A stretch of 62,948 nt of DNA, the filler included, from a candidate division TA06 bacterium SM23_40 (GTDB taxonomy: Bacteria > LJUI01 > SM1-40), in NCBI GenBank assembly GCA_001303705.1. It is 4 parts of 4 records of this genome, joined end to end, with 100 filler letters (N's around TTAATTAATTAA, not from the genome) between each part and the next. Parts side by side here need not be neighbours in the genome. Positions count along the whole stretch, not along the records: positions 1 to 17,004 come from LJUI01000047.1; 3 more parts are not named here. The stretch is one strand, 5' to 3'. The position numbers and the translations under genes were made by a program. This document shows positions 6,015 to 41,891 of this stretch, in pieces. The notes below the pieces were generated by a model. The model was not told the DNA's origin. It made no database searches and saw only the letters and a program-made list of their open reading frames with translations. How positions within the stretch are numbered: position 1 is the first letter of the stretch; every line of letters starts with the position of its first letter.

Positions 6015-9000
6015 CTATCTGAGGACGATCATCCGTCTCGTCAGTACCCTGCCGTCCGCCTCCAGGCGGCAGAAGTAGATGCCGCTTGCGACACGGGAGC
6101 CATGCGCGTCCGTGCCCACCCAGCGCACCCGATGGACGCCCGCCTGCCGCACCTCATCCATAAGGTAGGCAACACGCTGGCCCAGGATGTTGTACACGGC
6201 CAGGCGGACAGGTCCTCTCTTCGGCAGGGCGAACTCGATCTCCGTCTCGTCTCGGACAGGATTGGGGCGGTTCTGGCCGAGCGCGAGCTCGACGATCTGT
6301 TCCAGTTCTTCATCTCCGGCATCTCTCTCGACGCTCACGATGGGCCTCGTGGCGAACCCTACTCCCGAATCCCCGCTGAAGAACATCCTGTACGATTCAC
6401 CCTCGACGAAGATCTGCGGGGAGATGATTATGGTCTGATCCCAGCGTCCCGGCCCGCCTACGTCGAGTTCGCACCCATAATCACCGGGGCCGGTCTGTCT
6501 TGTCCAGATGATGCCATCTGGCGACGTAGCCGATCCGACACGGTACCTTCCGTCCTCTTCGACGATGCCGCCGTACCACATGCGGTATCTGTCGCCTTCC
6601 CAGACGACAAACGGATCCCAGACGCTCAACTGGTCGAAGCGTCCCGGATCGCCGCTCTCACTCAGGATCGGCGCGCCGTGTCGCGTCCAATTCACACCGT
6701 CCTGGGAGGTAGCGAGCCCGATCCTGTACAGGAAGTCGGGATAGCCGAACGCCGAGTACCACATGCGGTAGTCATCCGGCCCCGACTTCGATAGAAAGAG
6801 CCCGTATATGATGAACCAGTCCCAGCTGTAGTACTGACCGAGAAGGACGGGGTTGCCGCCGTACTTCTCCCACGTGATACCGCCGTCGGTCGAAGTGGCG
6901 TACCCGACCCCCGCGGTCGCGAGACCGTCGCTTCCGATGAACCACATCTTCAACGTATCGCCGTCCCTGATGACGAAGGGGCGCCAGACGAGCACATTAT
7001 CCCATCCCGAGGCGGACGGCGAGAGCACAGGGTTGGAGGGCTCCCGCTCCCACGTGAGCCCGCCATCGGTGGACGTCGCGAGCCCGATTTGGTAGACGGA
7101 GGCCATCGTATCTCCTCCCACTCCTGCGTACCACATCTTGAAGACTCCCTCATCTTCGAGCATGGTGCCGCCGACTACGAATGAGTCCCATTCGGTCGAG
7201 TCGCCAGGGGAGAAGACGGGGTTGAGCGGGCTCTTCACCCAGTTCGAGGTCCTCGGGACCCGTACCTCGAGGGTATAGACGAACTGGGTTCCCCGTTCGT
7301 CAGCGACGACGAGTGTGAAGTCTATCGTCTGGCCGACAGGGTGGCCGAGAGAGACCGTGAAGTCGAAGTCGTCGAATGTGGTAGCTATGCCTTCTTCCGG
7401 AATATCCCCGAACAGCTCGACGCTGTCGGTGATCGTAACGTATGGATCGGCCGTCGAGATGACGCCGCGCACCTCATGGCCGACCGCTGTGCCGCTGTTT
7501 CTGACCGAGACCGGGAGCTCGATCGACTCGCCCGGCTGGGCGACACCATCGCCGTTGCCCGCGCTCGTCCCCGAACTGTCATCATCGAGGTAGTAGTGCT
7601 CCAGGGTCAGGATCGGTATCGAGAGTCCGGAGGCGGCGAAGACGTCGGCGATGCCCCAGCCGTAGTCGTTATCGGGAGAGCTCGACTGGCTTGCGGTGCT
7701 GAGGAGCGCCTCGCGCACCTGCATCGGCGTCCACTCGGGGTGTATCTCGAGGAGGAGGCCGGCAGAGCCTCCGATGAGCGGCGTGGAGAATGACGTGCCG
7801 CTCCCGTACCCGTACGCCGTCGTGGTAGCCGGGTCGACAAGGTATGTGTCGACGCCGAGGGCGCACACCTCGGGCTTGGTGCGACCATCATAGGTCGGGC
7901 CGCGCGAACTGAAGGTGGCGATGATGTTCGATCGGTCGACAGCGCCGACGGCAATAATGCTGTCTGCGTCGGCCGGGGCGAGCATTGTCCCCGAGGCAGG
8001 GCCCTCGTTTCCCATGCAGTTGCAGACGACGATGCCGTTGTACGCCGCCCAGTCCGCGGCCTGGGTCGTCACCGCGCTGTCTCCGTTCATGTCAGGGTAC
8101 GTGTACCAGTCGATATATCCGAGTGAGCTGGAGACGACATCCGCGCCGAGGCTGTCGGCCCACTCGATCCCTTCGACCCACCAGTCCTCCTCCTGCGGGT
8201 ACTCGCCGGATGTGTCTTCGGTCTTGGCGAGGATAAAGCTCGCACCGTAGGCAGGTCCGATCAGGTTGCCATCGGAGAACCCCCCGAGAACAGAGAGGGT
8301 CGCTGTCCCGTGGTAGTCCTGGCCCGGCGGATCACCGGGCTCGTTCTCAGTGATATCATCATCGTTGATGAAGTCGTGCTCGGCGATGAGATCGATGCCC
8401 GTGAGTGCCTCATGGTGGCGGTTGAACCCGGTGTCGAGCATGCATACGATGACCCCGGCACCGCTGTATCCCAGCATGTGGAGGGGCAGTACATTGATCT
8501 GCTCAAGCTGGAAATCGGACAGTCCATAGTCCCATGAGAAGGCGCGGCCCGGCTGCTCTAACGGCGTAACGGCGCGGGGAGGGGCGGGGCGCACTTCCTC
8601 GCGGAAGGTTCTCCGATAGGAGACGAGAGGATTGATTGCCCGGACGAAGGGAAGCCGGGAGATCGCGCGGATCTGGTCCGGTGTGGCCTCGATGCTCACG
8701 GCGTTGAGCCAGCGCGATGTCGCGCGATGTTTCGCCCCGGTCGCCTCGATCGCTGCGATGTATTCTGATTTGACGGAGATGTCTCGGAAGTCGACGAGAT
8801 CGTCCTCTGCGCGCACCTTGGCGCGCCTGTGGAGCGTTCGCTCGGGAAATGCGGCACGGGCGGCGTCGAGGCGGGTCTGACATTCCCGTTCATCGAAGAT
8901 ACCTTTGTCCGTCAGGTAGACCCATACCTTGAGTCGCGCCTCGGGTCGGCCCTCCATCAGTTCACGAACCCGCGGCGAGATGAGCGGGATCCGCTGAGGT

Positions 9001-9119
9001 TGCGTGAGGGCAGGGTCGGTGAGGTGCTGGCCATGAGTCTGTTCAGCACCGGGCGGGGCAGCGCCCACGAAAAGGGCGGCTGCCAGGATGAGGATTCCGA
9101 ATCTTCGAGCTTGCTTCAC
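6015..9119 (-). CDS. Secreted S8 subtilase with Ig-like domain, GH32/43/130-like beta-propeller and FlgD-Ig/T9SS-like C-terminal domain
   Basis: GTG start after GAGGAGG and a signal peptide. Catalytic MLDTG, YHGT, GTSFS. Repeated (KM/RM)WY...IGLATSxDG..W blades. C-terminal QNRPNP...YNILGQRV...ASGIYFCRL. Confidence 0.88.
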   Translation of the reverse strand: MKQARRFGILILAAALFVGAAPPGAEQTHGQHLTDPALTQPQRIPLISPRVRELMEGRPEARLKVWVYLTDKGIFDERECQTRLDAARAAFPERTLHRRAKVRAEDDLVDFRDISVKSEYIAAIEATGAKHRATSRWLNAVSIEATPDQIRAISRLPFVRAINPLVSYRRTFREEVRPAPPRAVTPLEQPGRAFSWDYGLSDFQLEQINVLPLHMLGYSGAGVIVCMLDTGFNRHHEALTGIDLIAEHDFINDDDITENEPGDPPGQDYHGTATLSVLGGFSDGNLIGPAYGASFILAKTEDTSGEYPQEEDWWVEGIEWADSLGADVVSSSLGYIDWYTYPDMNGDSAVTTQAADWAAYNGIVVCNCMGNEGPASGTMLAPADADSIIAVGAVDRSNIIATFSSRGPTYDGRTKPEVCALGVDTYLVDPATTTAYGYGSGTSFSTPLIGGSAGLLLEIHPEWTPMQVREALLSTASQSSSPDNDYGWGIADVFAASGLSIPILTLEHYYLDDDSSGTSAGNGDGVAQPGESIELPVSVRNSGTAVGHEVRGVISTADPYVTITDSVELFGDIPEEGIATTFDDFDFTVSLGHPVGQTIDFTLVVADERGTQFVYTLEVRVPRTSNWVKSPLNPVFSPGDSTEWDSFVVGGTMLEDEGVFKMWYAGVGGDTMASVYQIGLATSTDGGLTWEREPSNPVLSPSASGWDNVLVWRPFVIRDGDTLKMWFIGSDGLATAGVGYATSTDGGITWEKYGGNPVLLGQYYSWDWFIIYGLFLSKSGPDDYRMWYSAFGYPDFLYRIGLATSQDGVNWTRHGAPILSESGDPGRFDQLSVWDPFVVWEGDRYRMWYGGIVEEDGRYRVGSATSPDGIIWTRQTGPGDYGCELDVGGPGRWDQTIIISPQIFVEGESYRMFFSGDSGVGFATRPIVSVERDAGDEELEQIVELALGQNRPNPVRDETEIEFALPKRGPVRLAVYNILGQRVAYLMDEVRQAGVHRVRWVGTDAHGSRVASGIYFCRLEADGRVLTRRMIVLR

Positions 9120-9285
9120 AGCACATACCTCCTCTCTCGGATCTTGCGTTGAGCGGCGCAAAATAGTCTGGTAAATGCGCGAGGTCGAGCAGGTGGGAGC
9201 TGGACGCTGAGTACCCACCTGAAGATACGTTTGACGCTTGTCCGGTGTTCCAGGGCGCTTGGTGCAGGCGGGATGCGATTCCATC

Positions 9286-11058
9286 TCAGGGGACCGCGAA
9301 CAGCGAGTCGGCCAGGCCGACGTCGAATTGGATCCCGACGACCTGCGTCTCGCCAACAAGCTGGTGCTGTACGAGCCGTCTGGTGACAAACGGGATGCGT
9401 CGTCCGCCAGCAACTGCCCGGTAGTCCTCGAACCGGGACTCCCTGATTATCGGCGCGTATGGGATCCGTTCTAGCAGCCGTCGGGGCAGCCCGTCGTGCG
9501 CGCTGACCCAGAGCTGGCTGGATGTGTAATCGCCCTGGCTCGCGCCGATCACCACCACGTCAATTCCGTCGACTACTTCTGTGTGGATGACGTCGGCAGC
9601 GATTCCCAGCTTGTCCGGCGGCGCGTCGTCCAGGTCGCCTGCAAGATGTTTCAGGAACTGCTCGGGTGAGAGGTTGTAGACGGCATAAAGCAGGTAGCCG
9701 AGACTCTGCGGCACGTCGGAGAGCCGTCCCTGCCCCGGGAGCGGCACGCCATAGTTGTAGATGAGCACCGAGTTTTCTCCGAGCTCGACACGCTCTTCGC
9801 CCGGCGGCCTGAAGAGAAGACGAATATCGAGTGTGGCTGCTCCTCCCTCCGCCTGGACGGCATACATAGTTCCGCGCTGGGTCAAGACCATGTCCCGGAC
9901 CGATTGTCCCTCGCCCTTCATTCTCTCGAAGATTCGGTACAGCTGCGAGCGGTCGGGCCCGCCACCACTCTTGATGCGGTCGCGAGATCGGGCCGGGAGG
10001 TGCGAGAATCCGATCTCGCCCACGCCAGGGCCTGCAGACAAGGTCGCCAGGACCGCGAGAGATCCGGGATCGAGGATGAAAATGCGCTTGGTCGCTCTAT
10101 CGATGAGCACCAGCCGGTCGCCCTCCGGTGTGAATGCACCGAAGCCGGGAGACTCACCTAGTGCCAGGTTGCGATAGGGTGAGATCTCGAGGCTATCCTC
10201 GAAATTCGTCTGAAAAGTGATCACCAATCCTACTCTTGGTTCGTCGCCCTCAGCCTCCGCCTCGGTCGCCACCACGAGCTGGGTCCCGTCCGGGCGCACC
10301 ATGATCGAGCGGGGCGCCCTGTCGAGCGGGATGGTGCGGACCGCCTTGAGCGTCGCAGTGTCGATGATAGTGATATCGCGGGACAGAACGTTGGCTGTTA
10401 TCACATAGCGTCCGTTCGGCGAGATGGCGATGTCGTACGGGTCGTTGCCAACCTCGATCTCGGCAGCAATCACGCGCTCCTCGGTATCGTAGACGGTGAT
10501 CTTGTCATAGGTGCGCGCCTCATCGGGGGAGTAGGTGCCGGGGATGTGTCTCTGACAGATATACAGCCAGCGATCGTCAGGAGTGAGAACGGCCCGCCAC
10601 GGATTCGGGATCTCGACCGATGCTGTGGAGATGAGAAATCCGGTCTCGGCGTCGAACTCATGGACAGCATCGGAGATTACGTAGTAGCGGCTCCCGTCAC
10701 TGGTGAAGACCGGATTGACCAGAGGGGTGGTCTTGATGGCGTGAGTCGCCGTCTCGATGATTGTAGTTTGATATCCGCGGCGGTTGGCTACCCATATCTC
10801 CTCGCCGCCGGGCCGCACCCTGATCGACTCCGGTCCATCGCCGGCATAGATCTTGCCGATCGCTCGAGCCTCATAAGGGTCTATTATCAGAATATGATTG
10901 CGGTCGCGGATCGACACGTAGCCGAGGACGACGAGTTCTGTCTCCTGGACCTGGCAGCCGAACATCAAGGTGGCGGCGAGGAGAGCAGCGGCGATCAGGA
11001 GGAGCAGCCATCTCCGTAGGGCGAGATGAGAGAGGGCGGTAAGGATAGTACGATACAT
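9286..11058 (-). CDS. Lipoprotein with YVTN-type beta-propeller and C-terminal LolA-like domain
   Basis: Lipobox LMFGC. YVTN repeats (IEVGNDPYDIAISPNGRYVITAN). C-terminal QLWVSAHDGLPRRL...RFEDYRAVAGGRRIPF...QFDVGLADSLF. Confidence 0.7.
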   Translation of the reverse strand: MYRTILTALSHLALRRWLLLLIAAALLAATLMFGCQVQETELVVLGYVSIRDRNHILIIDPYEARAIGKIYAGDGPESIRVRPGGEEIWVANRRGYQTTIIETATHAIKTTPLVNPVFTSDGSRYYVISDAVHEFDAETGFLISTASVEIPNPWRAVLTPDDRWLYICQRHIPGTYSPDEARTYDKITVYDTEERVIAAEIEVGNDPYDIAISPNGRYVITANVLSRDITIIDTATLKAVRTIPLDRAPRSIMVRPDGTQLVVATEAEAEGDEPRVGLVITFQTNFEDSLEISPYRNLALGESPGFGAFTPEGDRLVLIDRATKRIFILDPGSLAVLATLSAGPGVGEIGFSHLPARSRDRIKSGGGPDRSQLYRIFERMKGEGQSVRDMVLTQRGTMYAVQAEGGAATLDIRLLFRPPGEERVELGENSVLIYNYGVPLPGQGRLSDVPQSLGYLLYAVYNLSPEQFLKHLAGDLDDAPPDKLGIAADVIHTEVVDGIDVVVIGASQGDYTSSQLWVSAHDGLPRRLLERIPYAPIIRESRFEDYRAVAGGRRIPFVTRRLVQHQLVGETQVVGIQFDVGLADSLFAVP

Positions 11059-11913: not shown

Positions 11914-12216
11914 CGCATATTTGCCGTCGGTGTGTGCCAATTCACTCAATCGGAAGGGCGAAATCTCAAACGGGGGAACAACCCACTGGATTCGCGATTA
12001 GCGGGATTGGGGGTCGGATGGTTGCACTCTGGTGCGAAGAAAGACACAGCACGGGGGGTGGGGAGGGCACGGCCGTGCTGCGTGCGACCGCCGCGGCCCG
12101 ACGGCGGGAGGAAGGGGCCCACCGATCGATGCACTAAGCCGCCATTTTCCGGGGTGTTATGCCGTCCACAAATCCGAGTGTATGGAGCAAGCGACATCGG
12201 CCGGTACACACCGTCG

Positions 12217-12232
12217 TGGCACACTTCTTGCT
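12217..12232 (+). promoter_or_regulatory. Sigma54 (-24/-12) promoter upstream of the bEBP gene
   Basis: TGGCAC-ACTTC-TTGCT matches TGGCAC-N5-TTGCW. Confidence 0.8.
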
Positions 12233-12307
12233 AAATTGGGACACCGGCACGAGCCCGGTTCCGCAGGGCAATGGACCGCATCTACCACCCCACAAATACT
12301 GAGGCTT

Positions 12308-13801
12308 ATGCGTTCATCGACGATATCGCCTTTGGGCCCGACAGAGACGCAGGAGGAGACAGGGCGCAAGGAGGGTGCGGAGGGATTCCTGGTGCTCGTG
12401 GCTTCTCCGGAGGCCGGATATCGGGACACCCTTCTGCCGCTCATTCTTCGAGAGGGTTGGTCATTCTCCTGGGCGGAGACCGCCGAGCAGGCACTCCGTA
12501 AGTTCGAGCGCTCCGATCCCGCGGTGGTGTTGTTGGCCACCGATCTCGCCGGCTCGTCAGCCCTGAAGCTCCTTTCCCGGATCAAGGAGCATTCGGACGA
12601 GCAGGAAGTGATTGTCATCACCCAGAATCCGGACGTCCAGACGGCGGTCGAGGCGACGCGGCTGGGAGGAAATGAGTACATCTGTCTCGATTCTCAGATC
12701 GATCGCCTGCGTGAGCGGCTGGAGGGGGCGTACGACGAGTGGATGGCTCGACAGAACCGGGCGGGCGACGCTGCCTGGAAGCAGCGGCGATACGGCCTGG
12801 AGAATATCATCGGGGAGAGCCCGGTGATGCAGGAGGTGTACACGTGGGCGGAAAAGATCATCGCGAGTGACTCGGTGACCGTGTTGATCAGAGGAGAGAC
12901 GGGGACGGGCAAGGAGCTCCTCGCCCGGGCAATGCATTATGGAAGCGCCCGTGGGAAGCAGCCATTCGTGGAGATCAACTCCACCGCGATCCCCGACGAT
13001 CTTCTGGAGGCTGAGCTGTTCGGGTACGAGAAGGGAGCGTTCACCGATGCCAAGAGGCAGAAGAAGGGGCTTCTCGAGCTCGCCAACGGCGGTTCGCTCT
13101 TCTTCGATGAAATCGGTCACATGAGCATGAAGCTCCAGCTCAAGCTGCTGAAGGTCGTGGAGGAGAAGGTCTTTCGCCGTGTTGGAGGGGTCAAAGACAT
13201 CAGCGTGGATGTGAGGATAATGGCGGCCACAAGTCGCGACCTGGAGGCGGCCCTGCGGGATGGGTATTTCCGCGAAGACCTGTACTATCGACTGAACGTC
13301 GTCTCCATCGAGTTACCGCCACTCCGGGAGCGTGGCGGCGACATCATTCTCCTGGCCAACCACCTCGTGAAACGGTTCAACAAGGAATACAGCCGGGAGA
13401 TCGAGGGGATCTCGGCCGAAGCCGAGCGCCTGCTCATGGCGTACGAGTGGCCGGGGAACGTGCGGGAGCTCAAGAATGCGATCGAGCGCGCTGTCCTCCT
13501 CGGCAATGGGAGGCTCATCGTCCCTGAGGACATCCGGATCAGCCTGCGGGTCGATACGGCCCTGAAGGATCAGGGACGAAGACAGAAAGGATCGGGCATC
13601 ACTCTGGAGGTGCCGCTCGAGGATTTCTCTTTTGCCGAGGTGGAGAAGGCCGTAATCGCCGAGATCCTCAAGATGAACGGCTGGAATAAGAGCAAGGCGG
13701 CGAGAATGCTAGACATATCCCGGCCCAGACTGCTGAGAAAGATAAAGAGGTACGGTCTGGAGAGGGATGGATCCGAGCCAGGAGACGGGACCTGTCCATG
13801 A
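12308..13801 (+). CDS. Sigma54 enhancer-binding protein (NtrC/Fis family) with degenerate aspartate-less receiver domain
   Basis: Walker A GETGTGKE, ELFGYEKGAFTDA, Walker B FFDEIG, FREDLYYRL, WPGNVREL, Fis-type HTH. The receiver has VLVASPE, VLLATDL and YICLD in place of DD, D and KP. The start is placed downstream of the sigma54 promoter. Confidence 0.9.
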   Translation: MRSSTISPLGPTETQEETGRKEGAEGFLVLVASPEAGYRDTLLPLILREGWSFSWAETAEQALRKFERSDPAVVLLATDLAGSSALKLLSRIKEHSDEQEVIVITQNPDVQTAVEATRLGGNEYICLDSQIDRLRERLEGAYDEWMARQNRAGDAAWKQRRYGLENIIGESPVMQEVYTWAEKIIASDSVTVLIRGETGTGKELLARAMHYGSARGKQPFVEINSTAIPDDLLEAELFGYEKGAFTDAKRQKKGLLELANGGSLFFDEIGHMSMKLQLKLLKVVEEKVFRRVGGVKDISVDVRIMAATSRDLEAALRDGYFREDLYYRLNVVSIELPPLRERGGDIILLANHLVKRFNKEYSREIEGISAEAERLLMAYEWPGNVRELKNAIERAVLLGNGRLIVPEDIRISLRVDTALKDQGRRQKGSGITLEVPLEDFSFAEVEKAVIAEILKMNGWNKSKAARMLDISRPRLLRKIKRYGLERDGSEPGDGTCP

Positions 13802-13946: not shown

Positions 13947-13962
13947 TGGCACAAGTATTGCT
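13947..13962 (+). promoter_or_regulatory. Sigma54 (-24/-12) promoter upstream of the ZU5-like lipoprotein gene
   Basis: TGGCAC-AAGTA-TTGCT. Confidence 0.82.
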
Positions 13963-14088
13963 TCACTAGTTGAGCGAACGTCGGAACAGGGCACGCCGGA
14001 GAGGCCGGCGGGCCTGACCCGATCCAGTACGGGACGAAACGATATCCCGAGATGGGGTCGCACAGGAGCTCGGGCTCCGAGGAGGTAC

Positions 14089-14649
14089 ATGATGCGTTCG
14101 CTCAACACGACACGGGGTTGGCTTGTGGGAGGACTGTTGATACTCATACTTGTCCTCGTTGGGTGTAGCCGGGACGACTCCCCGATTGCTCCGTCGGGGC
14201 CGGCAGCACTGGAACCGGATACGAGGACGGAACTGAATTTCCTCCCTATCGTAAATCCCGGGGGCGAGGGCCCTGCCAGAGGCCCGTGGATTCCGATACT
14301 GATCTGGGACAGGTTCAAAGACGACGGCGGCGAGCTCGATAACGGCCTCATCAGATTGGTGATCCCGGAAAACGCGCTCGGAGACGAAGCGTACATCTGG
14401 ATCTTCAGAGATCCTTTCTACGCGAAGGCTACCTTCGGCCCGGAAGGCCTCCGCTTCGCGAAGAAGGTGGAGCTGCGCTTCGATCTCGACTACGTTCAGT
14501 TGGGCTCGCTAAGCCCGGATGACGTTAGCATATGGTGGTTCGACGATGACTTGAATGAGTGGGAGAGGCTCGATACGTGGTTTGACCAGTCAGAGAGGGA
14601 GGTGGTTGCGGAGATCCGTCACTTCTCGGTATACGCGCTCTCCGATTAA
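14089..14649 (+). CDS. Lipoprotein with ZU5-like domain ending in HFS-VYALSD
   Basis: RBS GAGGAGG and lipobox LVGC. GGEL..IRLVIPENAL...FGPEGLRFAKKVEL...W...HFS is the ZU5-like pattern. Confidence 0.72.
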   Translation: MMRSLNTTRGWLVGGLLILILVLVGCSRDDSPIAPSGPAALEPDTRTELNFLPIVNPGGEGPARGPWIPILIWDRFKDDGGELDNGLIRLVIPENALGDEAYIWIFRDPFYAKATFGPEGLRFAKKVELRFDLDYVQLGSLSPDDVSIWWFDDDLNEWERLDTWFDQSEREVVAEIRHFSVYALSD

Positions 14650-14758: not shown

Positions 14759-16675
14759 ATGAAAGCCAGAGAGTCTCTCTCTCTGGAACAGCTTCTAGTG
14801 CTCTTGCAGAAGATTCGGTCTGCACCGGGTGTAGACCGGCCCGACATTGATGAGCCCGAAGCTGAAGAGATAATGGTCGATGGCGACGCCTTCGACCGTC
14901 TCAGGCGTTGGGTGGCCGATGGCGCTATTCCGGGCGAGGACGTGATCAAGCTCGGCCTTGTCAAGGATTCGCCTGAACAGGGTGAGTCCGCCACTCAGCC
15001 ACTCAAATTGACGGAGCGAGATCGTCTGGTGGTGTTGATGGAGGCCGGGAAGGTTCTGGCGTCAATGTATGACTGGGATCGGTCCATAGATTGTTACCGG
15101 GAGGCGCTGGAGATCTGCGAAAGACTAGAGGATACCGAGGCAAAGGCAGAGGCCTCCAAGCAGATCGGACGCCTCTATCGTCGTAAGAATCAATGGAAGG
15201 AGGCACTCGGCGCCTACGAGAAGAGCCTTGAGATGTACCGCGCGCTCGGCGATCTCGAAGGTGTGGCTCAAATTCACAACTCGCTGGGCATCATCTACTT
15301 CGAAAACGGCAAGTGGGACGAGGCGAAGGAGCGGTATCACGAGGCGCTGGAGGTAGCAGAGGAGCTCTCGAACTTCTTGCTCATCGCGAAGATAAACAAC
15401 AACCTGGGTGCTCTGGCGAATGCGATGGGCGACTGGGATCGGGCGGTCATTCACTATCAGGAAAGTGTGCCGGGGTTCGAGAAGGCCGGCGACCTGAAGG
15501 GGTTGGCGGAGACCTACCACAACCTCGGGATGACCTTTGCCGATCAGGGAAATCTGGAGAAGGCAGCCGAGTACTACGAGAGAAGCCTCGATCTCTCAAA
15601 GGAGCTTGGAGATCAGCGGCTGATGTCCGGCACTTTTATCAACCGGGCACACCTGTTTGCCAGAGAGGGCAATTACGACAAAGCCAAGGAGTACTGCGAT
15701 CGCGCACTGGCGATGCTCGACAGGCTCGGCGACAAGCTCGGCATCGCTGAAGTGTACAAGCTCTACGGTATGCTCCACCGCGAGCGGGAAGAGTGGGAGA
15801 GCGCGGAGCACTTGCTTCTGCAGAGTATCGCTTTAGGTGAAAAGATTCTCAATCCGCTCGGTGTGGCAGAGGCGTGCCACGAGCTCGGACTGGTGTACGA
15901 ACGCATGGGCGAAGGGAAGAAGACCTTGAAGCTGTTGACCAAGTCGCTCGACATCTTCAAGGAGCTTCGTGCGAGGAGGAGCATACTCCAGCTGAACCGA
16001 GAGCTGACAGAGGTCGAGAAGCTGTACCTTCGCATTCTGGAATCGATGGGTGCGGCGGTTGAAGCGAAGGATCCGTACACCCACGGTCATTCCCGGCGCG
16101 TGGCAAACTACTCACTTGAACTCGCCAGTAGATTCGAGGTTTCCGAAGAAGAGGCGAAGGGCATCTTGAGCGCGGCATATCTCCACGATGTGGGGAAAGT
16201 CTACATCGACGAAACGATCTTGATTAAACCGACAAGACTGACCGATGACGAGTACGAGCTGATCAAGCAGCATCCCAGGCTCGGCCTCCGCATGCTGGAG
16301 TCTGTCGAGTTCCCGTGGACGGTCAAGCCGCTCATCCTGCACCACCACGAGCACTTTGACGGGTCGGGATATCCCGACGGATTGAGCGGGAACGACATCC
16401 CCTGGGGTGCAAGACTCATCTTCGTGGCCGACTTCTTCGACGCCATGACGTCGGATCGGCCCTATCGAGCAGCCTGGGCAGTAGAGGAGACGATCAAGGT
16501 AATTCTTCACAACAGAGGAACATTGTTCGATCCCGAGATCGCTGATGTCTTCATCGACCTCGTGAAGAGCGAAGCCGCCCCTATTCAGGAGGATATCGCG
16601 TGTCGATTTGAGCGCGTGAAGAGCGCGCTGGAAAGCGGTCGCACGGCGGCATCCGAGGTCGAAGTTCGCTCATAG
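14759..16675 (+). CDS. TPR-repeat HD-GYP cyclic-dinucleotide phosphodiesterase
   Basis: About 8 MalT/Rap-like TPRs (AQIHNSLGIIY, AKINNNLGAL, AETYHNLGM), then KDPYTHGHSRRV, LHDVGK, HHEHFDGSGYPDGL, ADFFDAMTSDRPYR. No signal peptide or TM segment. Confidence 0.9.
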   Translation: MKARESLSLEQLLVLLQKIRSAPGVDRPDIDEPEAEEIMVDGDAFDRLRRWVADGAIPGEDVIKLGLVKDSPEQGESATQPLKLTERDRLVVLMEAGKVLASMYDWDRSIDCYREALEICERLEDTEAKAEASKQIGRLYRRKNQWKEALGAYEKSLEMYRALGDLEGVAQIHNSLGIIYFENGKWDEAKERYHEALEVAEELSNFLLIAKINNNLGALANAMGDWDRAVIHYQESVPGFEKAGDLKGLAETYHNLGMTFADQGNLEKAAEYYERSLDLSKELGDQRLMSGTFINRAHLFAREGNYDKAKEYCDRALAMLDRLGDKLGIAEVYKLYGMLHREREEWESAEHLLLQSIALGEKILNPLGVAEACHELGLVYERMGEGKKTLKLLTKSLDIFKELRARRSILQLNRELTEVEKLYLRILESMGAAVEAKDPYTHGHSRRVANYSLELASRFEVSEEEAKGILSAAYLHDVGKVYIDETILIKPTRLTDDEYELIKQHPRLGLRMLESVEFPWTVKPLILHHHEHFDGSGYPDGLSGNDIPWGARLIFVADFFDAMTSDRPYRAAWAVEETIKVILHNRGTLFDPEIADVFIDLVKSEAAPIQEDIACRFERVKSALESGRTAASEVEVRS

Positions 16676-17004: not shown

Positions 17005-17104
17005 NNNNNNNNNNNNNNNNNNNNNNNNNNNNNNNNNNNNNNNNNNNNTTAATTAATTAANNNNNNNNNNNNNNNNNNNNNNNNNNNNNNNNNNNNNNNN
17101 NNNN
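17005..17104. other. Artificial contig linker
   Basis: N44-TTAATTAATTAA-N44, giving stops in all six frames. Confidence 0.98.
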
Positions 17105-17293: not shown

Positions 17294-18637
17294 ATGCGCC
17301 CGTTCTGCTGTCGCATCGGCTGGTTGATGCTACTCATTCCATTCATCGCCATCGTGGGTCTGCTGATTAACGGATGCGAGAAGGAACTCGTCGAACCGGA
17401 AGACCCTGACGCTCCCATTATCAACAGTCTCACGGCGGATCCCCCGACGATCGGTATCCGTGGAAGGGTCACGCTGAAGTGCATCGCAGCTGACCCGGAA
17501 CACAATAAGGACTTCACATTCAGCTGGAGCAGCACGGCAGGCTCGTTCGTCAATTCCAACGGTGACTCGACAACCCACCCCGATCTCTCTGTTCACGCGA
17601 ACTATGCAACCTGGAATGCGCCTGACACCCCACAGGATGTGACGATGACGGTTGTGGTTGACGATGAGACGAACCAGACATCACAAAGCGTCGGGGTCCG
17701 GGTGACTGCTTACGAGCTGGTGGCCTATTGGGGGATGGTCGAAGCAGCAGGCGATTCCACGCACCATCCAGGCATGCTCGACATGCCGCGAGGCGTTGAG
17801 ATCGTAGGAGACTACTGCTACGTCGCCGACTGGGGCAACGATCGCATGCAGCGTTTCAGTCGACTCGATGGTACGTACGATACGTTGTGGACATTCGTTG
17901 TCTCCGGCCCGGACACGGTCGATATCGACGGTCCGATCGACATTGCCGCCGATGATGCTGGCAATGTCTTCCTCGTCGATCACCGGCGTCTGTACAGGTT
18001 CGATGCAGTGGGGCAGGACATCGTCTTCGATAGGTATGCCAGTGTCCCGGATTCCTTCTCGATCGGACTCGCGACCGATGCGGGCGGCAACGTTTATCTC
18101 TCGAGAGGGAACAGCGGAACCATCCGAGGATACGACGGGGATAACCTGAGCTCGCTGCCATCTCTCGTGACAGGCCTCTCCTCGCCTCGCGGGATCACTT
18201 TCGATCCGGGAGACGATTTCTTGGTGGTCGACTATGACCGCATTCCCTTTGCCGATACCATCGCGCCCGACAGTATCGTCTATGACACTACCACGGTCTC
18301 CTGGATCTTGCGGTACGAGGCCCCAGCCTACGTAGTGGTGAGTGATACGATCGGGCAGTATGGCGAAGCCGGGGACGGAGAGCTGTACGTTCCGTTCGCT
18401 CTCGCGTACGGCGCATTCGACGACGCCGTCTTCGTTACTGACCTGGGAGGTTCGGGTGATCCCCTCCTCACCCGGGTCGTGATGTTCTCCTCAGACGGCA
18501 CGTTCCAGCTCGAGTGGGGGAGTGCCGGCGGGGCGCTCGAGAGCTTCAATGCACCGCTGGGCCTGGCCGCCGACGACGAGGGATTCGTCTACGTCTCCGA
18601 TACGGGCAACAACGCGATCAAGAAGTACTCGCCATAG
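17294..18637 (+). CDS. Lipoprotein with Ig-like domain and NHL-repeat beta-propeller
   Basis: RBS GGAGGAGG and lipobox INGC. NHL repeats (YVADWGNDRMQRF; FNAPLGLAADDEGFVYVSDTGNNAIKKY). Confidence 0.8.
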   Translation: MRPFCCRIGWLMLLIPFIAIVGLLINGCEKELVEPEDPDAPIINSLTADPPTIGIRGRVTLKCIAADPEHNKDFTFSWSSTAGSFVNSNGDSTTHPDLSVHANYATWNAPDTPQDVTMTVVVDDETNQTSQSVGVRVTAYELVAYWGMVEAAGDSTHHPGMLDMPRGVEIVGDYCYVADWGNDRMQRFSRLDGTYDTLWTFVVSGPDTVDIDGPIDIAADDAGNVFLVDHRRLYRFDAVGQDIVFDRYASVPDSFSIGLATDAGGNVYLSRGNSGTIRGYDGDNLSSLPSLVTGLSSPRGITFDPGDDFLVVDYDRIPFADTIAPDSIVYDTTTVSWILRYEAPAYVVVSDTIGQYGEAGDGELYVPFALAYGAFDDAVFVTDLGGSGDPLLTRVVMFSSDGTFQLEWGSAGGALESFNAPLGLAADDEGFVYVSDTGNNAIKKYSP

Positions 18638-18701
18638 GGTCGAACGGGTACGCTCTGATTTTCATCAGCTAGGGAGAGTGAACGCAAAGGAGGAACGGAC
18701 G

Positions 18702-19658
18702 ATGAACAGACTGGTTGGCGCGCAGTCTCTCGCCGCAGCATCGGCGTTGCTGATCGTTCTCGCGCTTTCACCGTGCGCCGTGCTGGCCCAATCGAAGGTG
18801 GGGACTGCCGGCATGCAGTTTCTCGAAGTCGGCACGACCGCCCGGGTCGCCGGGATGGGAGAGGCATTCGTCGCGGTGGCGGATGATGCATCGGCGCTGC
18901 GGTACAATTCTGCCGGACTGGCGTGGTTGGAGGGACGAGAGGCCATCTTCGGCTACACGGACTATCCGGCGGATATCACGCTACAGTATGCCGGAGCCAT
19001 AGCTCCCATCTCGCCCGTGATCGGCACGGTGGGGATCGCTGTCACCTCCCTGACGATGGATGATATGGTGGTGACGACGCCGGTCGACTCCGATGTGACC
19101 GGTACGGGGCGCCACTTCACAGCGGGCGATGTGGCAGTCCAGCTGAGCTACGCTCGTATGTTGACAGACCGTTTCTCTGCAGGGCTGTCGGTACGGTTCA
19201 TCCAGGAGGATCTCGAGGATGAGTCCGCCCAGGGGATCGGAGCAGACATCGGCACGTTGTATGATACCCACTGGAATACGGTCAAGGTCGGGATGAATAT
19301 CTCGAATTTCGGACCGGACATGAAATTCGTGGAGGAGAGCTTTCCGCAGCCGCTCAACTTCACGGTGGGCGTGTCGGTAGAGCCGATCAGCGACGAACTA
19401 CACCATCTCATTCTTGGGTTCGAAGGAAGCCATCCGAACGATAACGAGGAGCGGGCCGCAGTAGGAGGGGAGTACACTGTGTACCAGATGTTGTCGTTCC
19501 GGGGAGGCTACAAGATCAACTATGATGCGGAGACATGGTCGGCCGGGGTCGGCGTTCAGGTTCCGTTAGGTGTGATGGGAGTCAAGGTCGACTACTCGTA
19601 CACCGATTTCGGATATCTCAGTGATATCCACCGCGCGACACTGGGCATCAGCCTTTAG
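18702..19658 (+). CDS. PorV/PorQ-family (UPF0164) outer-membrane barrel
   Basis: KVGTAGMQFLEVGTTARVAGMGEAFVAVADDASALRYNSAGLA...NFGPD...DYSYTDFGYLSDIHR. RBS AAGGAGG. Confidence 0.85.
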   Translation: MNRLVGAQSLAAASALLIVLALSPCAVLAQSKVGTAGMQFLEVGTTARVAGMGEAFVAVADDASALRYNSAGLAWLEGREAIFGYTDYPADITLQYAGAIAPISPVIGTVGIAVTSLTMDDMVVTTPVDSDVTGTGRHFTAGDVAVQLSYARMLTDRFSAGLSVRFIQEDLEDESAQGIGADIGTLYDTHWNTVKVGMNISNFGPDMKFVEESFPQPLNFTVGVSVEPISDELHHLILGFEGSHPNDNEERAAVGGEYTVYQMLSFRGGYKINYDAETWSAGVGVQVPLGVMGVKVDYSYTDFGYLSDIHRATLGISL

Positions 19659-19904
19659 GCCGTGCGGCTCCGGTGGGCAGTTGGGCGCCGGCGGCAAGAG
19701 AAGAAAGGAGGAAAGTGATAGCCGTCGGAAGGCATGGACGTGAAGGGAAGCAGCGTTGTGCTTGTCAAAGAGCCCTCCCGTCGTTGCCTGAACGCTGCCA
19801 CGTGGGTCAGGAGAGCAGCGAGGTCGGCTGTCAGCGAGGGGGGGAGAGACGAGGGATGGTAGATGGCAGATCTACCAGCCATGCGAGGAAGGAGGAGCGA
19901 GAGC

Positions 19905-21758
19905 ATGTTGCTTCAACGTCAGATCCCGATCGCGATCCTGGTCGGCTGCTTGCTCGTCAGCTCTGCCGCCGCCTTTGTCGTGGTCCCCGAACGGAGTGAC
20001 TTCAGCCTGAGAGATGTCGAGGAAGGTTCGATGCTCAGGCCGGCAGTGGAGGAGGGGCAGGCCGGAGTGGCGACGCCACCTGATCCCGGTACTGCCCACT
20101 GGGTCGCCACGAGCAATTTCCCCACTGATCCAGCGTTTGACTCTCCGTTCTCCTACCCCAATAACCGGCACGTCTGCGTCCATCCAGTCATGGACATTCC
20201 GTTCGTCGGCTGGATGAACAATGACGCGCACCCCACCATTTTCGCGAGCTATGAGTCTCACTGGAACGACCTGTTCCAGTTCTGGACCACTCCTGTCTCC
20301 TTCGTAGACACCCTCCGCGGTCGGCGCTCGGGCGTCTTAGGTGATCACACGACCACAGTGCACGGTACTTGCGCAGCATCGAATGGCGGCACCGTGACGA
20401 GAGAAATATGGTACAACCGCTACGAGAATCCGTGGACCGCGCCGACGTTGATCAGCACCGATGACGGCATTCAGGACTACTTCGTCGCGATGGCGGCCGA
20501 TCTGAATGACAACATCTGGCTGGCCTGGGAGCACAACTGGAATGCGGCGTCAGCCAACGACCACGTTCTGCAGGCGACCTATTCAACCGATAACGGGGTT
20601 ACCTGGGACCAGGGTAACATCGTGGATGTCCACTCCCCGTACAGCGGCGCCTGGAACCTCACTACGATCGCCACTGATCCGACGAACGGGGACGCGTACA
20701 TCGCCTGTGGGATTTACTGGCCGCTCGGCATGCTGTCGCTTCCCGACGACGATGGGTTCAATGACGTCGTACTCTGGCACTACTATGCAGACGGTGATAC
20801 GTGGGGCAGTGAGCCCGAAGTCGTGGTCCAGGATATCGATGAAGATCCCACGATCTTTGGCAACCAGGCCTCGCTTCCCACGCTCGTCGTCGACTCCCAG
20901 GGTACCGTCCACCTGGTCTTCCAGGGCAATCCGAACGTACAGGCCGGAGACGGCACGCTCCAGGGGTACACGATCACCGGACCTGCCGGTGCGCTCTACT
21001 ACACCAACAACGAAGGCGGGATGTGGAGCACTCCCGAAGAGGTCTTCCCGTTGGTCTGGACGGCCTATGGTGACAGCATCGACAGCATGGGCACGATGTG
21101 TGGATACCCCACCATGGGTATCGACGAGAATGATGGCCTCTGGCTGGTGACTACCGCGCCCACCGTCATCTACAACGATACGATCTTCAGCTGGAACGCC
21201 GAGGTCGCCTACAGGCCTTATGGAGGCGCCTGGAATGCTCCCGAGGACAACTACACGTTGAGCAGCATACCGGAGGATTCGGCGCGGATCGGGAAGTCGG
21301 CCATCTATGCGTCCATCCCTCATATGGTCGAGGAGGGATATCCGCAGTGTGCCTGGACTCAGATCGTTGACGCGCGGCTCGAGTACGGCGAGATCTGGTA
21401 TCACCGGGCCGAGGTGGTTGGTGTGGGAGATGGCGATTCGGAGAACAGGTTGCCGACAGGGCAGCCCATCTGCCTCTCTCAGAGCTATCCCAACCCGGTC
21501 CTGAGAGGTGCTCGCCACAACGTGACGACGATCCGGTACCAAGTTCCTGAGCCCGGGCAGGCAACGCTCAGGATCTACGATGCGGCCGGACGACTCGTGC
21601 GAGAGCTCGTCAACGGTACGGTAGAGGCAGGATCGCACGAAGCGAGATGGGATGGCCGGGATGTTCGCGGCCGCGACGTTGCGAGCGGTGTGTACTTCTA
21701 CCGTCTCGAGGCGGAGCGCGCCGGGAGCATGGTCAGGAAGATGGTGCTCCTCAACTGA
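19905..21758 (+). CDS. Secreted Asp-box beta-propeller protein with FlgD-Ig/T9SS-like CTD (paralog 1)
   Basis: Signal peptide, Asp-box STDNGVTW, CTD QSYPNP...IYDAAGRLVR...WDGRD..G..VASGVYFYRL. Confidence 0.8.
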   Translation: MLLQRQIPIAILVGCLLVSSAAAFVVVPERSDFSLRDVEEGSMLRPAVEEGQAGVATPPDPGTAHWVATSNFPTDPAFDSPFSYPNNRHVCVHPVMDIPFVGWMNNDAHPTIFASYESHWNDLFQFWTTPVSFVDTLRGRRSGVLGDHTTTVHGTCAASNGGTVTREIWYNRYENPWTAPTLISTDDGIQDYFVAMAADLNDNIWLAWEHNWNAASANDHVLQATYSTDNGVTWDQGNIVDVHSPYSGAWNLTTIATDPTNGDAYIACGIYWPLGMLSLPDDDGFNDVVLWHYYADGDTWGSEPEVVVQDIDEDPTIFGNQASLPTLVVDSQGTVHLVFQGNPNVQAGDGTLQGYTITGPAGALYYTNNEGGMWSTPEEVFPLVWTAYGDSIDSMGTMCGYPTMGIDENDGLWLVTTAPTVIYNDTIFSWNAEVAYRPYGGAWNAPEDNYTLSSIPEDSARIGKSAIYASIPHMVEEGYPQCAWTQIVDARLEYGEIWYHRAEVVGVGDGDSENRLPTGQPICLSQSYPNPVLRGARHNVTTIRYQVPEPGQATLRIYDAAGRLVRELVNGTVEAGSHEARWDGRDVRGRDVASGVYFYRLEAERAGSMVRKMVLLN

Positions 21759-21862: not shown

Positions 21863-21971
21863 TAGAGAGGTCACGGAGTCGGGCAGCCCCGTGGCGGAAA
21901 GGAGGTGATGTACCCCTCCCGGGGATATCGAGCAGCATGGCTTGTTTCCTTCTATTGGAGGTAGGGTGAGC

Positions 21972-23828
21972 ATGAAAAATGTAGTGTTTGCATGTGGTGT
22001 TGTGGTTCTCGTGCTGTCCGTTGCCCTGCCCTCGTGGGCGGCGCACGATGGCGCGGTCTCCAGAGAGGCGATCTCGAGGCCGATGGCCAGGGCCGGCGTG
22101 CCGACAGCGACTCCCCCTCCGTTCTGGCAGTTGTCCACCGTTCGGAACGATGCCGACTATCTGAAGCAGGATGGCACGGGCGATTCGCCCCTCTCCTACC
22201 CGGGCTTCACCCACATCGCCCACGACATGGTCGAGGACGTTCCCTTCTGCCTGTGGCGTGAGGGCAGCTTCTCGGATGCAGATCTTCTCGAGAGCCACTG
22301 GAACGATCTCTTTCTCTTCTGGACGACACCTGTCGAGGTCATCGCCGATGAGCTTGTGGCCAGGCGTGGGAACGGGTTGATGTACGATGACAACGGGGTG
22401 ATCCACGTCGCCGGCGCGTTCGGCCCCGGCTCTGGAGGTCCGTTCGACATCCGGTACGCCCGGCGCGATCCCGTCGCCGGAACGTGGGGAGCGTCGGTGC
22501 AGCTCTCAGTGGAAGACGATTCCACCGACTACTTCCCCGCGGGTACTGTCGATAGCAATGGGAATGTCTGGGTCGAATGGGAACGGGTCATCACTTCGCC
22601 CGCTCACGAGGCGATCCTGGCATACAAGTCCACCGATGGCGGCGAGACGTGGGATCCGGGCAATCGCGAGGTGATCGTCGATCCGTTCGATGGAGGATGG
22701 TCGACCTGGAACATGTTCGCTGACCCGTCGAATGGAGACGTCTGGGGCGTCACTGGTGCCTTCGGCAATGAGGACCTGTTCAACGACCTCTGCATCTGGC
22801 ACTATGTGGCAGCGCAGGACACGTGGATGGGCCCGGAGATACCGGTAGTCGGGGATATGGCCCTGAACGACTCGCTCGGGTGGCAGGTGGCGATGCCGCA
22901 GATCGTCATCGACTCACAGCACAATGCCCACGTCGTCTTCGAGATGAACGGACAGGACGATCCCGCGACCAATCCACGTACGCTGACGGTCATTGCCAAC
23001 ATGGGCCCGTATGGAACGATGCACTATGTCAATAACGTCGGCGGCGACTGGTCTGACCCGGTCCAGATCTTCGTTGCACCGGACACCATCAAGCCGCAGA
23101 CCGACTCTGTCTGCGGTGTTCCGTCGATCGGAATCGACGCCTTTGACAATCTGTACATCTCCTTCTCCCAGGCACTCCAGGTCGATAGCCTGACGGCGAC
23201 GGGTGTGATCTGGTCGATGCCGGTCGATGCTTACATGAGCTACAATCCGTACGATCCCGTGGCGCAGGAGTGGCTGGGGTGGAGCGACAGAGTCAAGCTC
23301 TCTGATCTCCCGATCTGGGAGCTCGGGCCTGACTCGCTGGTCGGTGCCGACTCGGTCGCTCTGTACCCGGGGGTGACGCCCAGGGTCCCCTCCTCCGGCG
23401 AGACGGCTGGCCCGGGGTTCTTCTGGTGTGAATGGCTGGCGGACAACAGCGCCAACGATTACCACATGATTGACTTCAAGTACGTCCACGCCAGCCTCTG
23501 CACCCTTCCCACAGGGATTTCGGTGGAGGAGCCCGTCTCGGTGAGGAGAGACGGTCTCTTCCTCGGCCAGAACAGGCCGAATCCGTTCTGGAAGAGCACC
23601 GAGATCGCGTATGGACTGCCGCAGAGTGGGCATGTGCGGCTCGAGATCCATAACGTGCTGGGCCAGCGCGTGCGGACGCTCGTCGACCGCTTCCAGGATG
23701 CGGGAAGACACCGCGTCATCTGGGACCGCCGGGACGAGAGCGGTGCCTATGTGGCGAGCGGGATCTACTTCTACCGCCTCGAGGGACCCGGGACCTCTAA
23801 GAACAAGAAGATGGCGGTCCTCAACTAG
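21972..23828 (+). CDS. Secreted Asp-box beta-propeller protein with FlgD-Ig/T9SS-like CTD (paralog 2)
   Basis: Signal peptide, STDGGETW, shared motif ESHWNDLFxFWTTPV, CTD QNRPNPF...ASGIYFYRL. Confidence 0.8.
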   Translation: MKNVVFACGVVVLVLSVALPSWAAHDGAVSREAISRPMARAGVPTATPPPFWQLSTVRNDADYLKQDGTGDSPLSYPGFTHIAHDMVEDVPFCLWREGSFSDADLLESHWNDLFLFWTTPVEVIADELVARRGNGLMYDDNGVIHVAGAFGPGSGGPFDIRYARRDPVAGTWGASVQLSVEDDSTDYFPAGTVDSNGNVWVEWERVITSPAHEAILAYKSTDGGETWDPGNREVIVDPFDGGWSTWNMFADPSNGDVWGVTGAFGNEDLFNDLCIWHYVAAQDTWMGPEIPVVGDMALNDSLGWQVAMPQIVIDSQHNAHVVFEMNGQDDPATNPRTLTVIANMGPYGTMHYVNNVGGDWSDPVQIFVAPDTIKPQTDSVCGVPSIGIDAFDNLYISFSQALQVDSLTATGVIWSMPVDAYMSYNPYDPVAQEWLGWSDRVKLSDLPIWELGPDSLVGADSVALYPGVTPRVPSSGETAGPGFFWCEWLADNSANDYHMIDFKYVHASLCTLPTGISVEEPVSVRRDGLFLGQNRPNPFWKSTEIAYGLPQSGHVRLEIHNVLGQRVRTLVDRFQDAGRHRVIWDRRDESGAYVASGIYFYRLEGPGTSKNKKMAVLN

Positions 23829-34040: not shown

Positions 34041-34140
34041 NNNNNNNNNNNNNNNNNNNNNNNNNNNNNNNNNNNNNNNNNNNNTTAATTAATTAANNNN
34101 NNNNNNNNNNNNNNNNNNNNNNNNNNNNNNNNNNNNNNNN
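34041..34140. other. Artificial contig linker
   Basis: N44-TTAATTAATTAA-N44. Confidence 0.98.
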
Positions 34141-41791: not shown

Positions 41792-41891
41792 NNNNNNNNN
41801 NNNNNNNNNNNNNNNNNNNNNNNNNNNNNNNNNNNTTAATTAATTAANNNNNNNNNNNNNNNNNNNNNNNNNNNNNNNNNNNNNNNNNNNN
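41792..41891. other. Artificial contig linker
   Basis: N44-TTAATTAATTAA-N44. Confidence 0.98.

Follow-up and report, generated by a model that had tools for sequence, protein, structure and literature searches.

The window, a 62,948-nucleotide stretch of DNA (63 kb) of marine-sediment origin from candidate division TA06 bacterium SM23_40 (GenBank assembly GCA_001303705.1), contains a gene for a small lipoprotein with a single domain of the ZU5/GAIN_B type. It lies between a gene for an NtrC-type sigma-54 enhancer-binding protein (the activator) and a gene for a protein that combines tetratricopeptide repeats (TPR) with an HD-GYP domain (Table 1). Judged by their sequences, the three genes are a signalling module. 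The lipoprotein is predicted to cut itself at a His-Phe-Ser (HFS) site close to its C-terminus, and we consider here the possibility that the short tail behind the cut is a ligand of the TPR protein.

Table 1. Features of the lipoprotein locus. Positions count along the whole window.
Feature	Position	Strand	Remarks
Sigma-54 -24/-12 element 5' of the activator gene	12217-12231	+	TGGCAC-N5-TTGC, exact
NtrC-type sigma-54 enhancer-binding protein (activator)	12308-13801	+	receiver-like N-terminus, AAA+ with GAFTDA loop, HTH_8
Predicted sigma-54 promoter of the lipoprotein gene	13947-13961	+	exact TGGCAC-N5-TTGC, 143 nt 5' of the ATG
Ribosome-binding site AGGAGG	14080-14085	+	by sequence reading; 3-6 nt 5' of the ATG pair 14089/14092
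Lipoprotein open reading frame	14089-14649	+	186 aa, MMRSLN...LVLVGC(26)SRDD...EIRH(178)F(179)S(180)VYALSD, then stop
Signal peptide with lipobox LVGC (L23-V24-G25-C26)	14089-14166	+	lipobox at 14155-14166; Cys26 is the predicted lipidated first mature residue
Pro-rich linker, residues ~27-70	14167-14295	+	low model confidence; D30 and P32 conserved just past the Cys
ZU5/GAIN_B/MAIN-type beta-sandwich (predicted), residues 70-186	14296-14646	+	AlphaFold2, VIA, Foldseek, PDB profile search
His178-Phe179-Ser180, predicted autoproteolytic site	14620-14628	+	predicted cut F179|S180; in the turn that joins the last two strands
Tail SVYALSD, last beta-strand	14626-14646	+	predicted heptapeptide product
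Stop codon of the lipoprotein open reading frame	14647-14649	+	
TPR-HD-GYP protein	14759-16675	+	638 aa; 109 nt 3' of the lipoprotein gene
TPR region, residues about 90-420	15026-16018	+	about six TPR_12-type repeats, TPR_12 2.9e-53
HD-GYP domain, residues about 433-594	16055-16540	+	HD_5 4.9e-39

The sequence-only reading of this gene had claimed a lipobox LVGC, a Pro-rich linker, and an HFS site followed by only VYALSD and the stop codon, and translation bears all of this out. A hydrophobic helix at residues 8-24 of the structure model leads into the lipobox (L-V-G-C26; consensus [LVI][ASTVI][GAS]C), from which export and lipidation of the protein are predicted. The linker contains 9 Pro in 44 residues (27-70). 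Directly after the lipidated Cys stands the motif C-x3-D-x-P (P0001 residues 26-32, and relatives in both alignments described below), which in kinase-type relatives reads CG[TD]YSPVxPSQ[DE]; a role in sorting or in export to the surface is conceivable, comparable to that of the acidic signal that Bacteroidota lipoproteins carry. Public gene calls place the start of the lipoprotein at 13798, giving a protein of 283 residues. The true start is 14089 or 14092, because the sigma-54 element lies within the 283-residue extension and a ribosome-binding site precedes the ATG pair. There are only two exact matches to TGGCAC-N5-TTGC in the window, one 5' of the activator gene and one 5' of the lipoprotein gene, and we take the latter gene to be real, with a predicted sigma-54-dependent promoter.

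The activator has Pfam matches to Sigma54_activat (2.2e-66), Response_reg (2.3e-10) and HTH_8. Where sigma-54 enhancer-binding proteins carry a GAFTGA loop, it reads GAFTDA. Its start is probably 12308, since the exact sigma-54 element lies inside the long open reading frame 12032-13801, and the gene may be autoregulated. Receivers usually carry an acidic pair, at the place of which the receiver-like domain has S-P-E. Some NtrC-type activators bind cyclic di-GMP (c-di-GMP). The other neighbour retains both an HD motif (residue 476) and a GYP motif (residue 537) intact and is a predicted HD-GYP c-di-GMP phosphodiesterase. It has no hydrophobic segment and is therefore cytoplasmic. Against Pfam RNPP_C it scores 26.1 bits, just below the cut-off of 26.5, and it has neither an HTH nor a Rap-type output domain. 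Its gene is probably co-transcribed with the lipoprotein gene.

The window lipoprotein matches no family in Pfam (E<=1), NCBIfam (E<=0.1) or PADLOC (E<=0.001). A single-sequence search of PDB sequences gave chance nanobody matches only (E>=0.12), and a word-indexed homologue search at similar lengths returned the lipoprotein itself and nothing else. An exhaustive HMMER search over 1.84 billion cluster representatives, with a cut-off of E<=1e-3, found at least 258 sequence clusters of relatives. Among the 150 relatives listed, 106 have a lipobox-like motif and 120 have at most 260 residues; the family consists mostly of lipoproteins of 170-225 residues. The last H-x-S/T/C motif is HFS in 137 of these 150 proteins and HFT in 7, and 100 of the 120 short relatives among the matches listed terminate 6-10 residues past the last H-x-S motif. 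We aligned the 120 short relatives, which are only 21-46% identical to the window protein, and separately a subfamily of 11 proteins. In the larger alignment H178 and F123 are invariant, and C26, P32, G80, G81, P93, A96, P118, F179, S180 and Y182 are at least 90% conserved.

A profile of the family matches the ZU5 domains of ankyrin-1 (5.8e-5) and ZO-1 (2.3e-4) in the PDB, as well as those of ankyrin-2 and -3, and Pfam ZU5 (PF00791) is matched by 47 of the 120 short relatives at E<=0.1. The AlphaFold2 model built on the larger alignment has a predicted local distance difference test score (pLDDT) of about 97 for residues 70-186, and places HFS between strands 171-178 and 181-185. Foldseek ranks the ZU5 domains of ankyrin, UNC5b and ZO-1 first (E 5.7e-5) and GAIN domains next. 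The ankyrin-B ZU5 domain (4d8o) can be superimposed with VIA-align over 113 residues, with a root-mean-square deviation of 2.5 and a Z score of 11.7; the scores are 8.6 for UNC5b, 8.4-8.8 for the GAIN domains of CD97 and BAI3, and 5.0 for Nup98. Look-alike clusters in the ESM Atlas are annotated as 'hypothetical protein' and come mostly from Gemmatimonadota; one has Pfam ZU5 in 50% of its members. As modelled, the fold is that of ZU5/GAIN_B domains, and it is nearly certain that the gene encodes a real lipoprotein of ZU5/MAIN fold. The ZU5-like fold and the conservation of HFS in homologues, both anticipated from the sequence, have thus held up.

MAIN (Microbial Autoproteolysis INducing) is the name given to microbial GAIN_B/ZU5-like domains by Brogan & Rudner (2026 preprint, bioRxiv 10.64898/2026.05.12.724683). 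According to the available part of that preprint, MAIN domains are cut between the F and the S of HFS, as determined by Edman degradation, and cleavage is lost upon S-to-A substitution and restored by S-to-T. Given the invariant HFS, and by analogy with the homologous domains in these experiments, self-cleavage between F179 and S180 is likely. The best structural matches are the non-catalytic ZU5 domains of ankyrins, which would suit a protein-binding beta-sandwich that does not cleave, as in ankyrin or ZO-1, with HFS in a purely structural role. We regard this as very unlikely, since an invariant H178 and F179/S180 conservation of at least 90% persist across proteins this divergent, 144 among the 150 relatives listed have HFS or HFT as their last motif, and nearly all tested HFS-bearing bacterial MAIN domains were cleaved, as far as the available text of the preprint reports.

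Virtually all of the 15,000 proteins surveyed in the preprint, in the part available, have the order signal peptide, cargo, MAIN domain, C-terminal anchor, with a mean mass of 158 kDa. The window protein does not have this architecture: it is 186 residues long, has an N-terminal lipobox and contains no other domain. Two long relatives (P0007 and P0132) do show the canonical MAIN layout, with C-terminal ends resembling S-layer homology domains. The genomes of three loci (L022, L023 and L024, from G001-G003) each also encode a protein of ~1680-1700 residues that has a single ZU5/MAIN domain and presumably represents the canonical form with a large cargo. The sequence-only reading had also stated that there is no downstream cargo, and this is correct, the only C-terminal product of a cleavage being SVYALSD, with a calculated mass of about 753 Da; because most short relatives end 6-10 residues after the HFS site, the heptapeptide is the only detachable part. 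Self-cleavage of GAIN and ZU5 domains is known for releasing large ectodomains or death-fold domains. Because the domain here stands alone, cleavage must serve to produce the short peptide or the new C-terminus.

Thirteen related loci were obtained through the motif of the 11-protein subfamily. The order in L001, L002, L003 and L011 is activator, TPR-HD-GYP, lipoprotein (one or two copies of the last), unlike the window order of activator, lipoprotein, TPR-HD-GYP; the linkage has therefore outlasted a rearrangement. Of the 151 genomes sampled from Candidatus Krumholzibacteriota, the phylum of L003 (genome G003), 80 have a match at E<=1e-8. Just 3 of the 151 have TPR-HD-GYP orthologues, each adjoining a ZU5 lipoprotein gene, and the same is true of every TPR-HD-GYP orthologue found. 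We then considered 38 stand-alone lipoprotein genes in 37 loci of one phylum, 17 with flanks of ~1.5 kb and 20 with flanks of ~7-8 kb. Thirty of the 38 adjoin a gene for a protein of ~1200-1350 residues with the domains Pkinase, AAA_16 and MalT-like TPR (kinase-STAND-TPR), without a consistent membrane segment. Three adjoin a TPR-HD-GYP gene; a fourth, which is a tandem copy, lies one gene more distant. The remaining four have less than 330 nt of downstream flank and lie too near the locus end to judge. Thus a cytoplasmic TPR signalling gene lies alongside in 34 of 34 judgeable relatives, counting the tandem copy. An orthologous activator stands directly 5' of the lipoprotein gene in 25 of the 38. 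The kinase gene is co-directional, convergent or divergent depending on the genome, and the lipoprotein/TPR pairs span five gene arrangements. One genome (G013; loci L067, L068 and L069) has three separate pairs of lipoprotein and kinase-STAND-TPR genes with different gene orientations and different tails (SRYAEDVGG, SRYGGLIGG and SNYRGKVNG), which look like duplicated cognate pairs. Among the genomes sampled, pairing with cytoplasmic TPR signalling proteins is strict and independent of gene arrangement, and the lipoprotein is probably coupled to them in function.

Of the 38 genes, 37 are preceded by a sigma-54 element, which is exact in 24, has one mismatch in 10 and two in 3. Control regions of the same length contain such an element in 7 of 38 cases downstream and 2 of 38 antisense. 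In 13 regions, which measure about 9 to 16.5 kb, the lipoprotein's element is the only consistent one. The metagenome relatives L005-L007 have a similar element at about -144, and a sigma-54-like element is kept both in these and in L013. The predicted sigma-54 promoter is a trait of the lipoprotein family.

The tails fall into types. HD-GYP-type proteins have the tail core S-[RV]-Y-A-L-[SA]-D, which is their best-conserved part; Y182, L184, S185 and D186 are invariant in the 11-protein alignment, whose members are 27-46% identical to the window protein, and a few HD-GYP-type members have extra residues past the Asp. Where the kinase gene is co-directional, the core protein is 50-83% identical between pairs, and variability is greatest in the tail beyond S-[DEG]-[YF]-[GA] (SDYGIGRGG, SEYGHAPEKL and SDYGYLDEG are among those found). 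Tails of the convergent kinase type end in -xxGG or -NG. Other tail ends are strictly conserved, HFSxYxxGRAGW-COOH and HFS[RG]YAVAW-COOH (P0012, P0014-P0017, P0069, P0072 and others), and their C-terminal Trp suggests recognition of a free end. These two tail classes are frequent in Gemmatimonadota-like clusters. Core and tail can be discordant: L065 and L066 share the tail SDYGYLD[EQ]G at 55% core identity, and the tail of L064 (SGYGIWPNG) differs from that of L066 despite 83% core identity. Tail exchange or selection for tail types is a possible cause.

The highly variable kinase-type tails would suit a leaving group. In principle, the chemistry of the N-to-O acyl shift permits the F179 ester to be resolved by a nucleophile of the envelope, such as an amine of peptidoglycan or lipid, so that the new C-terminus becomes covalently tied and the tail is discarded. 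The superfamily offers no precedent for such an acyl-transfer anchor, and it accounts for neither the TPR pairing nor the conserved SRYALSD core; we consider it extremely unlikely.

We modelled the window's TPR residues 85-425 (5-sequence alignment) together with lipoprotein residues 157-186 (11-sequence alignment) in a single job. The complex scored 0.66, which expresses model confidence and is no measurement, compared with 0.02 for the best of three controls, and the tail was placed in the TPR groove. In a benchmark, 58 of 80 solved complexes and 2 of 110 mismatched pairs reach the mark; these counts are approximate for our case, as custom alignments were used. The three runs of the complex share at least 90% of their contacts, and the pLDDT of the partner is at least 47. 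Lipoprotein residues 173-186 make contacts, those with the least predicted error being Y182, A183, L184 and S185 on the tail side and I178, F181, N214, N215, A218, N221, A222, E251, H254, N255 and M258 on the TPR side. Predicted contact positions are invariant among five orthologues at 30 of 48 sites, compared with 49 of 293 elsewhere in the TPR region (odds ratio 8.3, p 2e-10), a conservation that is in part the TPR_12 consensus itself. From the genomic context and this one model, the tail peptide may be a ligand of the TPR domain; we hold this tentatively, at a little under even odds.

The contribution of the TPR_12 consensus to the groove's conservation weighs against a ligand role of the tail, and so do a number of other points. 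The modelled 30-residue piece runs across the site in its uncut form, and the model's acquaintance with solved complexes of TPR domains and peptides may have helped it. The tail is modelled at a pLDDT of about 97 as an integral last strand, and the two products of MAIN cleavage co-elute on a size-exclusion column (bioRxiv 10.64898/2026.05.12.724683, available part), so that the earlier caveat about the last strand staying in the fold stands; release of the peptide after cleavage is not automatic. The lipoprotein would be periplasmic or on the surface and the TPR-HD-GYP protein cytoplasmic, with a membrane between them. Ten further window proteins scanned against Pfam are housekeeping or envelope enzymes, with no peptide transporter among them. 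Neither a TPR gene nor an activator gene is present in the available flanks of L013 and of L004-L008, the latter being metagenome loci of two sequence types whose proteins are most closely related to that of the window. The almost identical tails of L065 and L066 go with kinases no more alike than background. Finally, similarity at the variable tail positions tracks no 150-column window of the kinase-TPR protein across 10 kinase-type pairs (Mantel r -0.11 to 0.21, p>=0.065), in a test whose power is low with only 6 variable tail positions. In the same 10 pairs the variable tail does not follow the ZU5 core either (Mantel r 0.04), and ZU5 core similarity tracks every kinase window (r 0.51-0.71). 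Co-variation of the tail with the TPR partner, which the sequence-only reading had suggested looking for, thus gave no signal in this low-powered comparison.

Much of this would suit a regulated output, in which the lipoprotein matures by self-cleavage, keeps its peptide bound and has an envelope or surface role, perhaps in binding or as an element that responds to force or stress; the activator and TPR genes would be its neighbours solely through controlling its expression. No gene of the locus other than that of the lipoprotein is consistently a sigma-54 target, which suits the output gene of a regulon; the products of MAIN cleavage remain associated, as the available part of the preprint indicates, and the tail is an integral strand in the model; tail and kinase do not co-vary, and some relatives have no TPR neighbours. 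This explanation is nevertheless unlikely, though we take it seriously. A bare autoproteolytic domain without cargo has no evident effector function, and several observations are left unaccounted for: a constant TPR sensor whose output switches between kinase and HD-GYP, the joint duplication of paralogous pairs, the conserved solvent-facing tail residues (R181, S185 and D186) and the specific tail-groove model.

The relatives provide a candidate route across the membrane. A common co-directional cluster consists of an OPT transporter gene and a PqqD-like gene, then in opposite orientation the genes for a 192-residue lipoprotein and a 647-residue TIG lipoprotein, then activator, ZU5 lipoprotein and kinase. 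The OPT oligopeptide transporter (PF03169, 1.7e-83) lies within ~8 kb in 8 loci, and 8 relatives have the PqqD-like peptide-binding protein in the cluster as well. Tested for OPT genes, 5 of 5 relatives have them, at 2-3 copies, compared with 2 of 14 control genomes. The linkage in these 8 loci, all of one clade, may be a coincidence, because OPT genes occur at 2-3 copies per genome; this, too, has to be set against import of the tail. In L054, L059, L064-L066, L070-L072 and similar loci the PqqD-like protein is a stand-alone one beside the OPT transporter, and the ~647-residue TIG and ~192-residue lipoproteins are divergent from the activator. None of these conserved neighbours (PqqD-like protein, TIG lipoprotein, 192-residue lipoprotein) has a sigma-54 element. 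Fusions of TPR and activator (766-870 residues) are found a few genes away in several loci. A search of the 63-kb window detected no homologue of OPT, PqqD-like, F3, F5 or kinase-STAND proteins, with one weak generic TPR match. The caveat that an importer would be needed therefore stands: the window has no OPT homologue, and there is no peptide transporter among the ten proteins scanned.

That same finding would make an export or envelope-integrity monitor attractive, in which the TPR protein reads the tail from unexported precursor that folds and cleaves in the cytoplasm, and so reports secretion or envelope stress. The topology problem would be gone, the same pairing and modelling evidence would apply, and family-wide sigma-54 dependence would suit a stress regulon; the sigma-54 activator PspF, which acts in the phage-shock response, is a loose parallel. 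The OPT transporter in the cluster of 8 relatives points to import instead, and the precursor would have to be able to fold before export. We consider the monitor improbable.

In its most far-reaching reading, to which we give a probability of roughly 0.35, the system would be an unrecognised class of peptide signalling outside Gram-positives, in which the lipoprotein is a pro-peptide together with its own processing enzyme, and its detached last strand, a free 'Stachel' of 7-16 residues, is read by cytoplasmic TPR receptors with HD-GYP or kinase-STAND outputs. In the mechanism that we favour for the window, the activator and sigma-54 would turn the lipoprotein gene on, as the presence of both promoter and activator suggests, and the lipoprotein would be exported and lipidated. 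Its folded domain would then cut between F179 and S180 through an N-to-O acyl shift, like related bacterial domains. SVYALSD would at first be retained as the last strand and later come free when it dissociates, or when the core unfolds or is degraded. An oligopeptide importer such as OPT could bring the peptide into the cytoplasm, or the peptide could derive from unexported precursor; it would bind the concave groove of the TPR domain, as in the structure model, along an Asn ladder formed by N174, N214/N215, N255 and N295. This might alter HD-GYP activity and, through c-di-GMP, the output of the activator. The main obstacles are the release of the strand and the membrane between the two proteins; the latter would be solvable by an OPT-type importer or by sensing of unexported precursor. 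In such a class, subfamily-specific or rapidly diverging tails would define signal types. The sequence-only reading had likened the heptapeptide to a pheromone, and that idea fares in part. It gains indirect support from the TPR pairing, the tail-groove model and the OPT transporters in relatives; it draws none from co-variation, or from an importer in the window.

Three observations stand apart from this argument. The window has a type IX secretion flavour, with genes at 6015-9413 (minus strand), 18522-19658, 19863-21758 and 21942-23828; the set comprises a PorV-like protein, a subtilase with Por_Secre_tail and two large proteins with FlgD_ig/CHU_C C-terminal sorting domains, and it points to a member of the FCB group. 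Paired 44-base N runs occur at 17005-17104, 34041-34140 and 41792-41891. A known anti-phage defence system was considered and rejected, as PADLOC gave only generic kinase-domain matches, to the neighbour in relatives.

Among known systems, the closest in domain and chemistry are the MAIN proteins, for example YfkN of B. subtilis. As far as the available part of the preprint describes them, they share with the window protein a beta-sandwich with HFS in the turn before the last strand, secretion and attachment to the envelope, but there cleavage frees a cargo, whereas the window protein has an N-terminal lipid anchor, no cargo and seven residues from cut to end. The text available to us never mentions the word lipoprotein, and the supplementary tables of the preprint may list such proteins. 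GAIN domains of adhesion G-protein-coupled receptors have the same fold and cut at H-x-S/T just before the last strand, which is itself the signalling peptide (Stachel). That peptide is tethered to a receptor in the same membrane; the one proposed here would be a free 7-mer acting on a separate cytoplasmic TPR protein. PIDD1 and Nup98 are autoproteases with an HFS-type site, Nup98 being a weaker structural match to the window protein. The FIIND of NLRP1 and CARD8 is likewise a ZU5-fold autoprotease (D'Osualdo 2011, in the part of the source available). Eukaryotic ZU5 autoproteases have an HFS or SFS site, and their C-terminal piece is held in place as long as the N-terminal one persists; what they release are folded death-fold domains inside the cytosol. 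For large toxins and surface proteins of bacteria, Zhang et al. 2012 (PMC3482391) predicted ZU5 'releasing peptidases'. As far as the accessible part of that paper goes, these are also bacterial, secreted and predicted to be autoproteolytic, but belong to very large RHS, SpvB or adhesin proteins that release toxins or enzymes, whereas here no domain is attached.

The gene arrangement recalls the RNPP peptide quorum sensing of Gram-positives (Rap-Phr, NprR-NprX, PlcR-PapR and PrgX; PMC3601965, available in part). The likeness would lie in a cytoplasmic TPR protein, here a candidate receptor, that is fused to an output domain and encoded beside a candidate precursor gene. In RNPP systems a gene for a secreted precursor stands beside the TPR receptor gene, the C-terminal 5-8 residues are the signal, and import is by an oligopeptide permease. 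Enterococcal sex pheromones are 7-8-mers cut from lipoprotein precursors. The RNPP pro-peptides are small, unfolded and cut by external proteases, unlike the folded lipoprotein predicted to cut itself; the outputs here are HD-GYP or kinase-STAND proteins, the promoter is of the sigma-54 type, and the host is a diderm of an uncultured lineage. Literature searches yielded no account of a ZU5/MAIN lipoprotein that stands alone, nor of such TPR peptide receptors in diderm bacteria. As of 2026 the domain and its chemistry are known; what is new is its occurrence by itself in an N-terminally lipidated, sigma-54-driven protein with an obligatory partner of the TPR type.

If the tail is indeed a ligand of the TPR protein, peptide signalling through TPR receptors would reach uncultured lineages of diderms (Krumholzibacteriota; Gemmatimonadota have look-alike clusters), a signalling peptide would have a protease-independent route of maturation, and the evolutionary link between MAIN domains and the tethered agonists of adhesion G-protein-coupled receptors would gain functional meaning. 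Even if the peptide reading is wrong, the combination of sigma-54 promoter, activator, TPR sensor and minimal MAIN lipoprotein is a conserved, undescribed regulatory unit.

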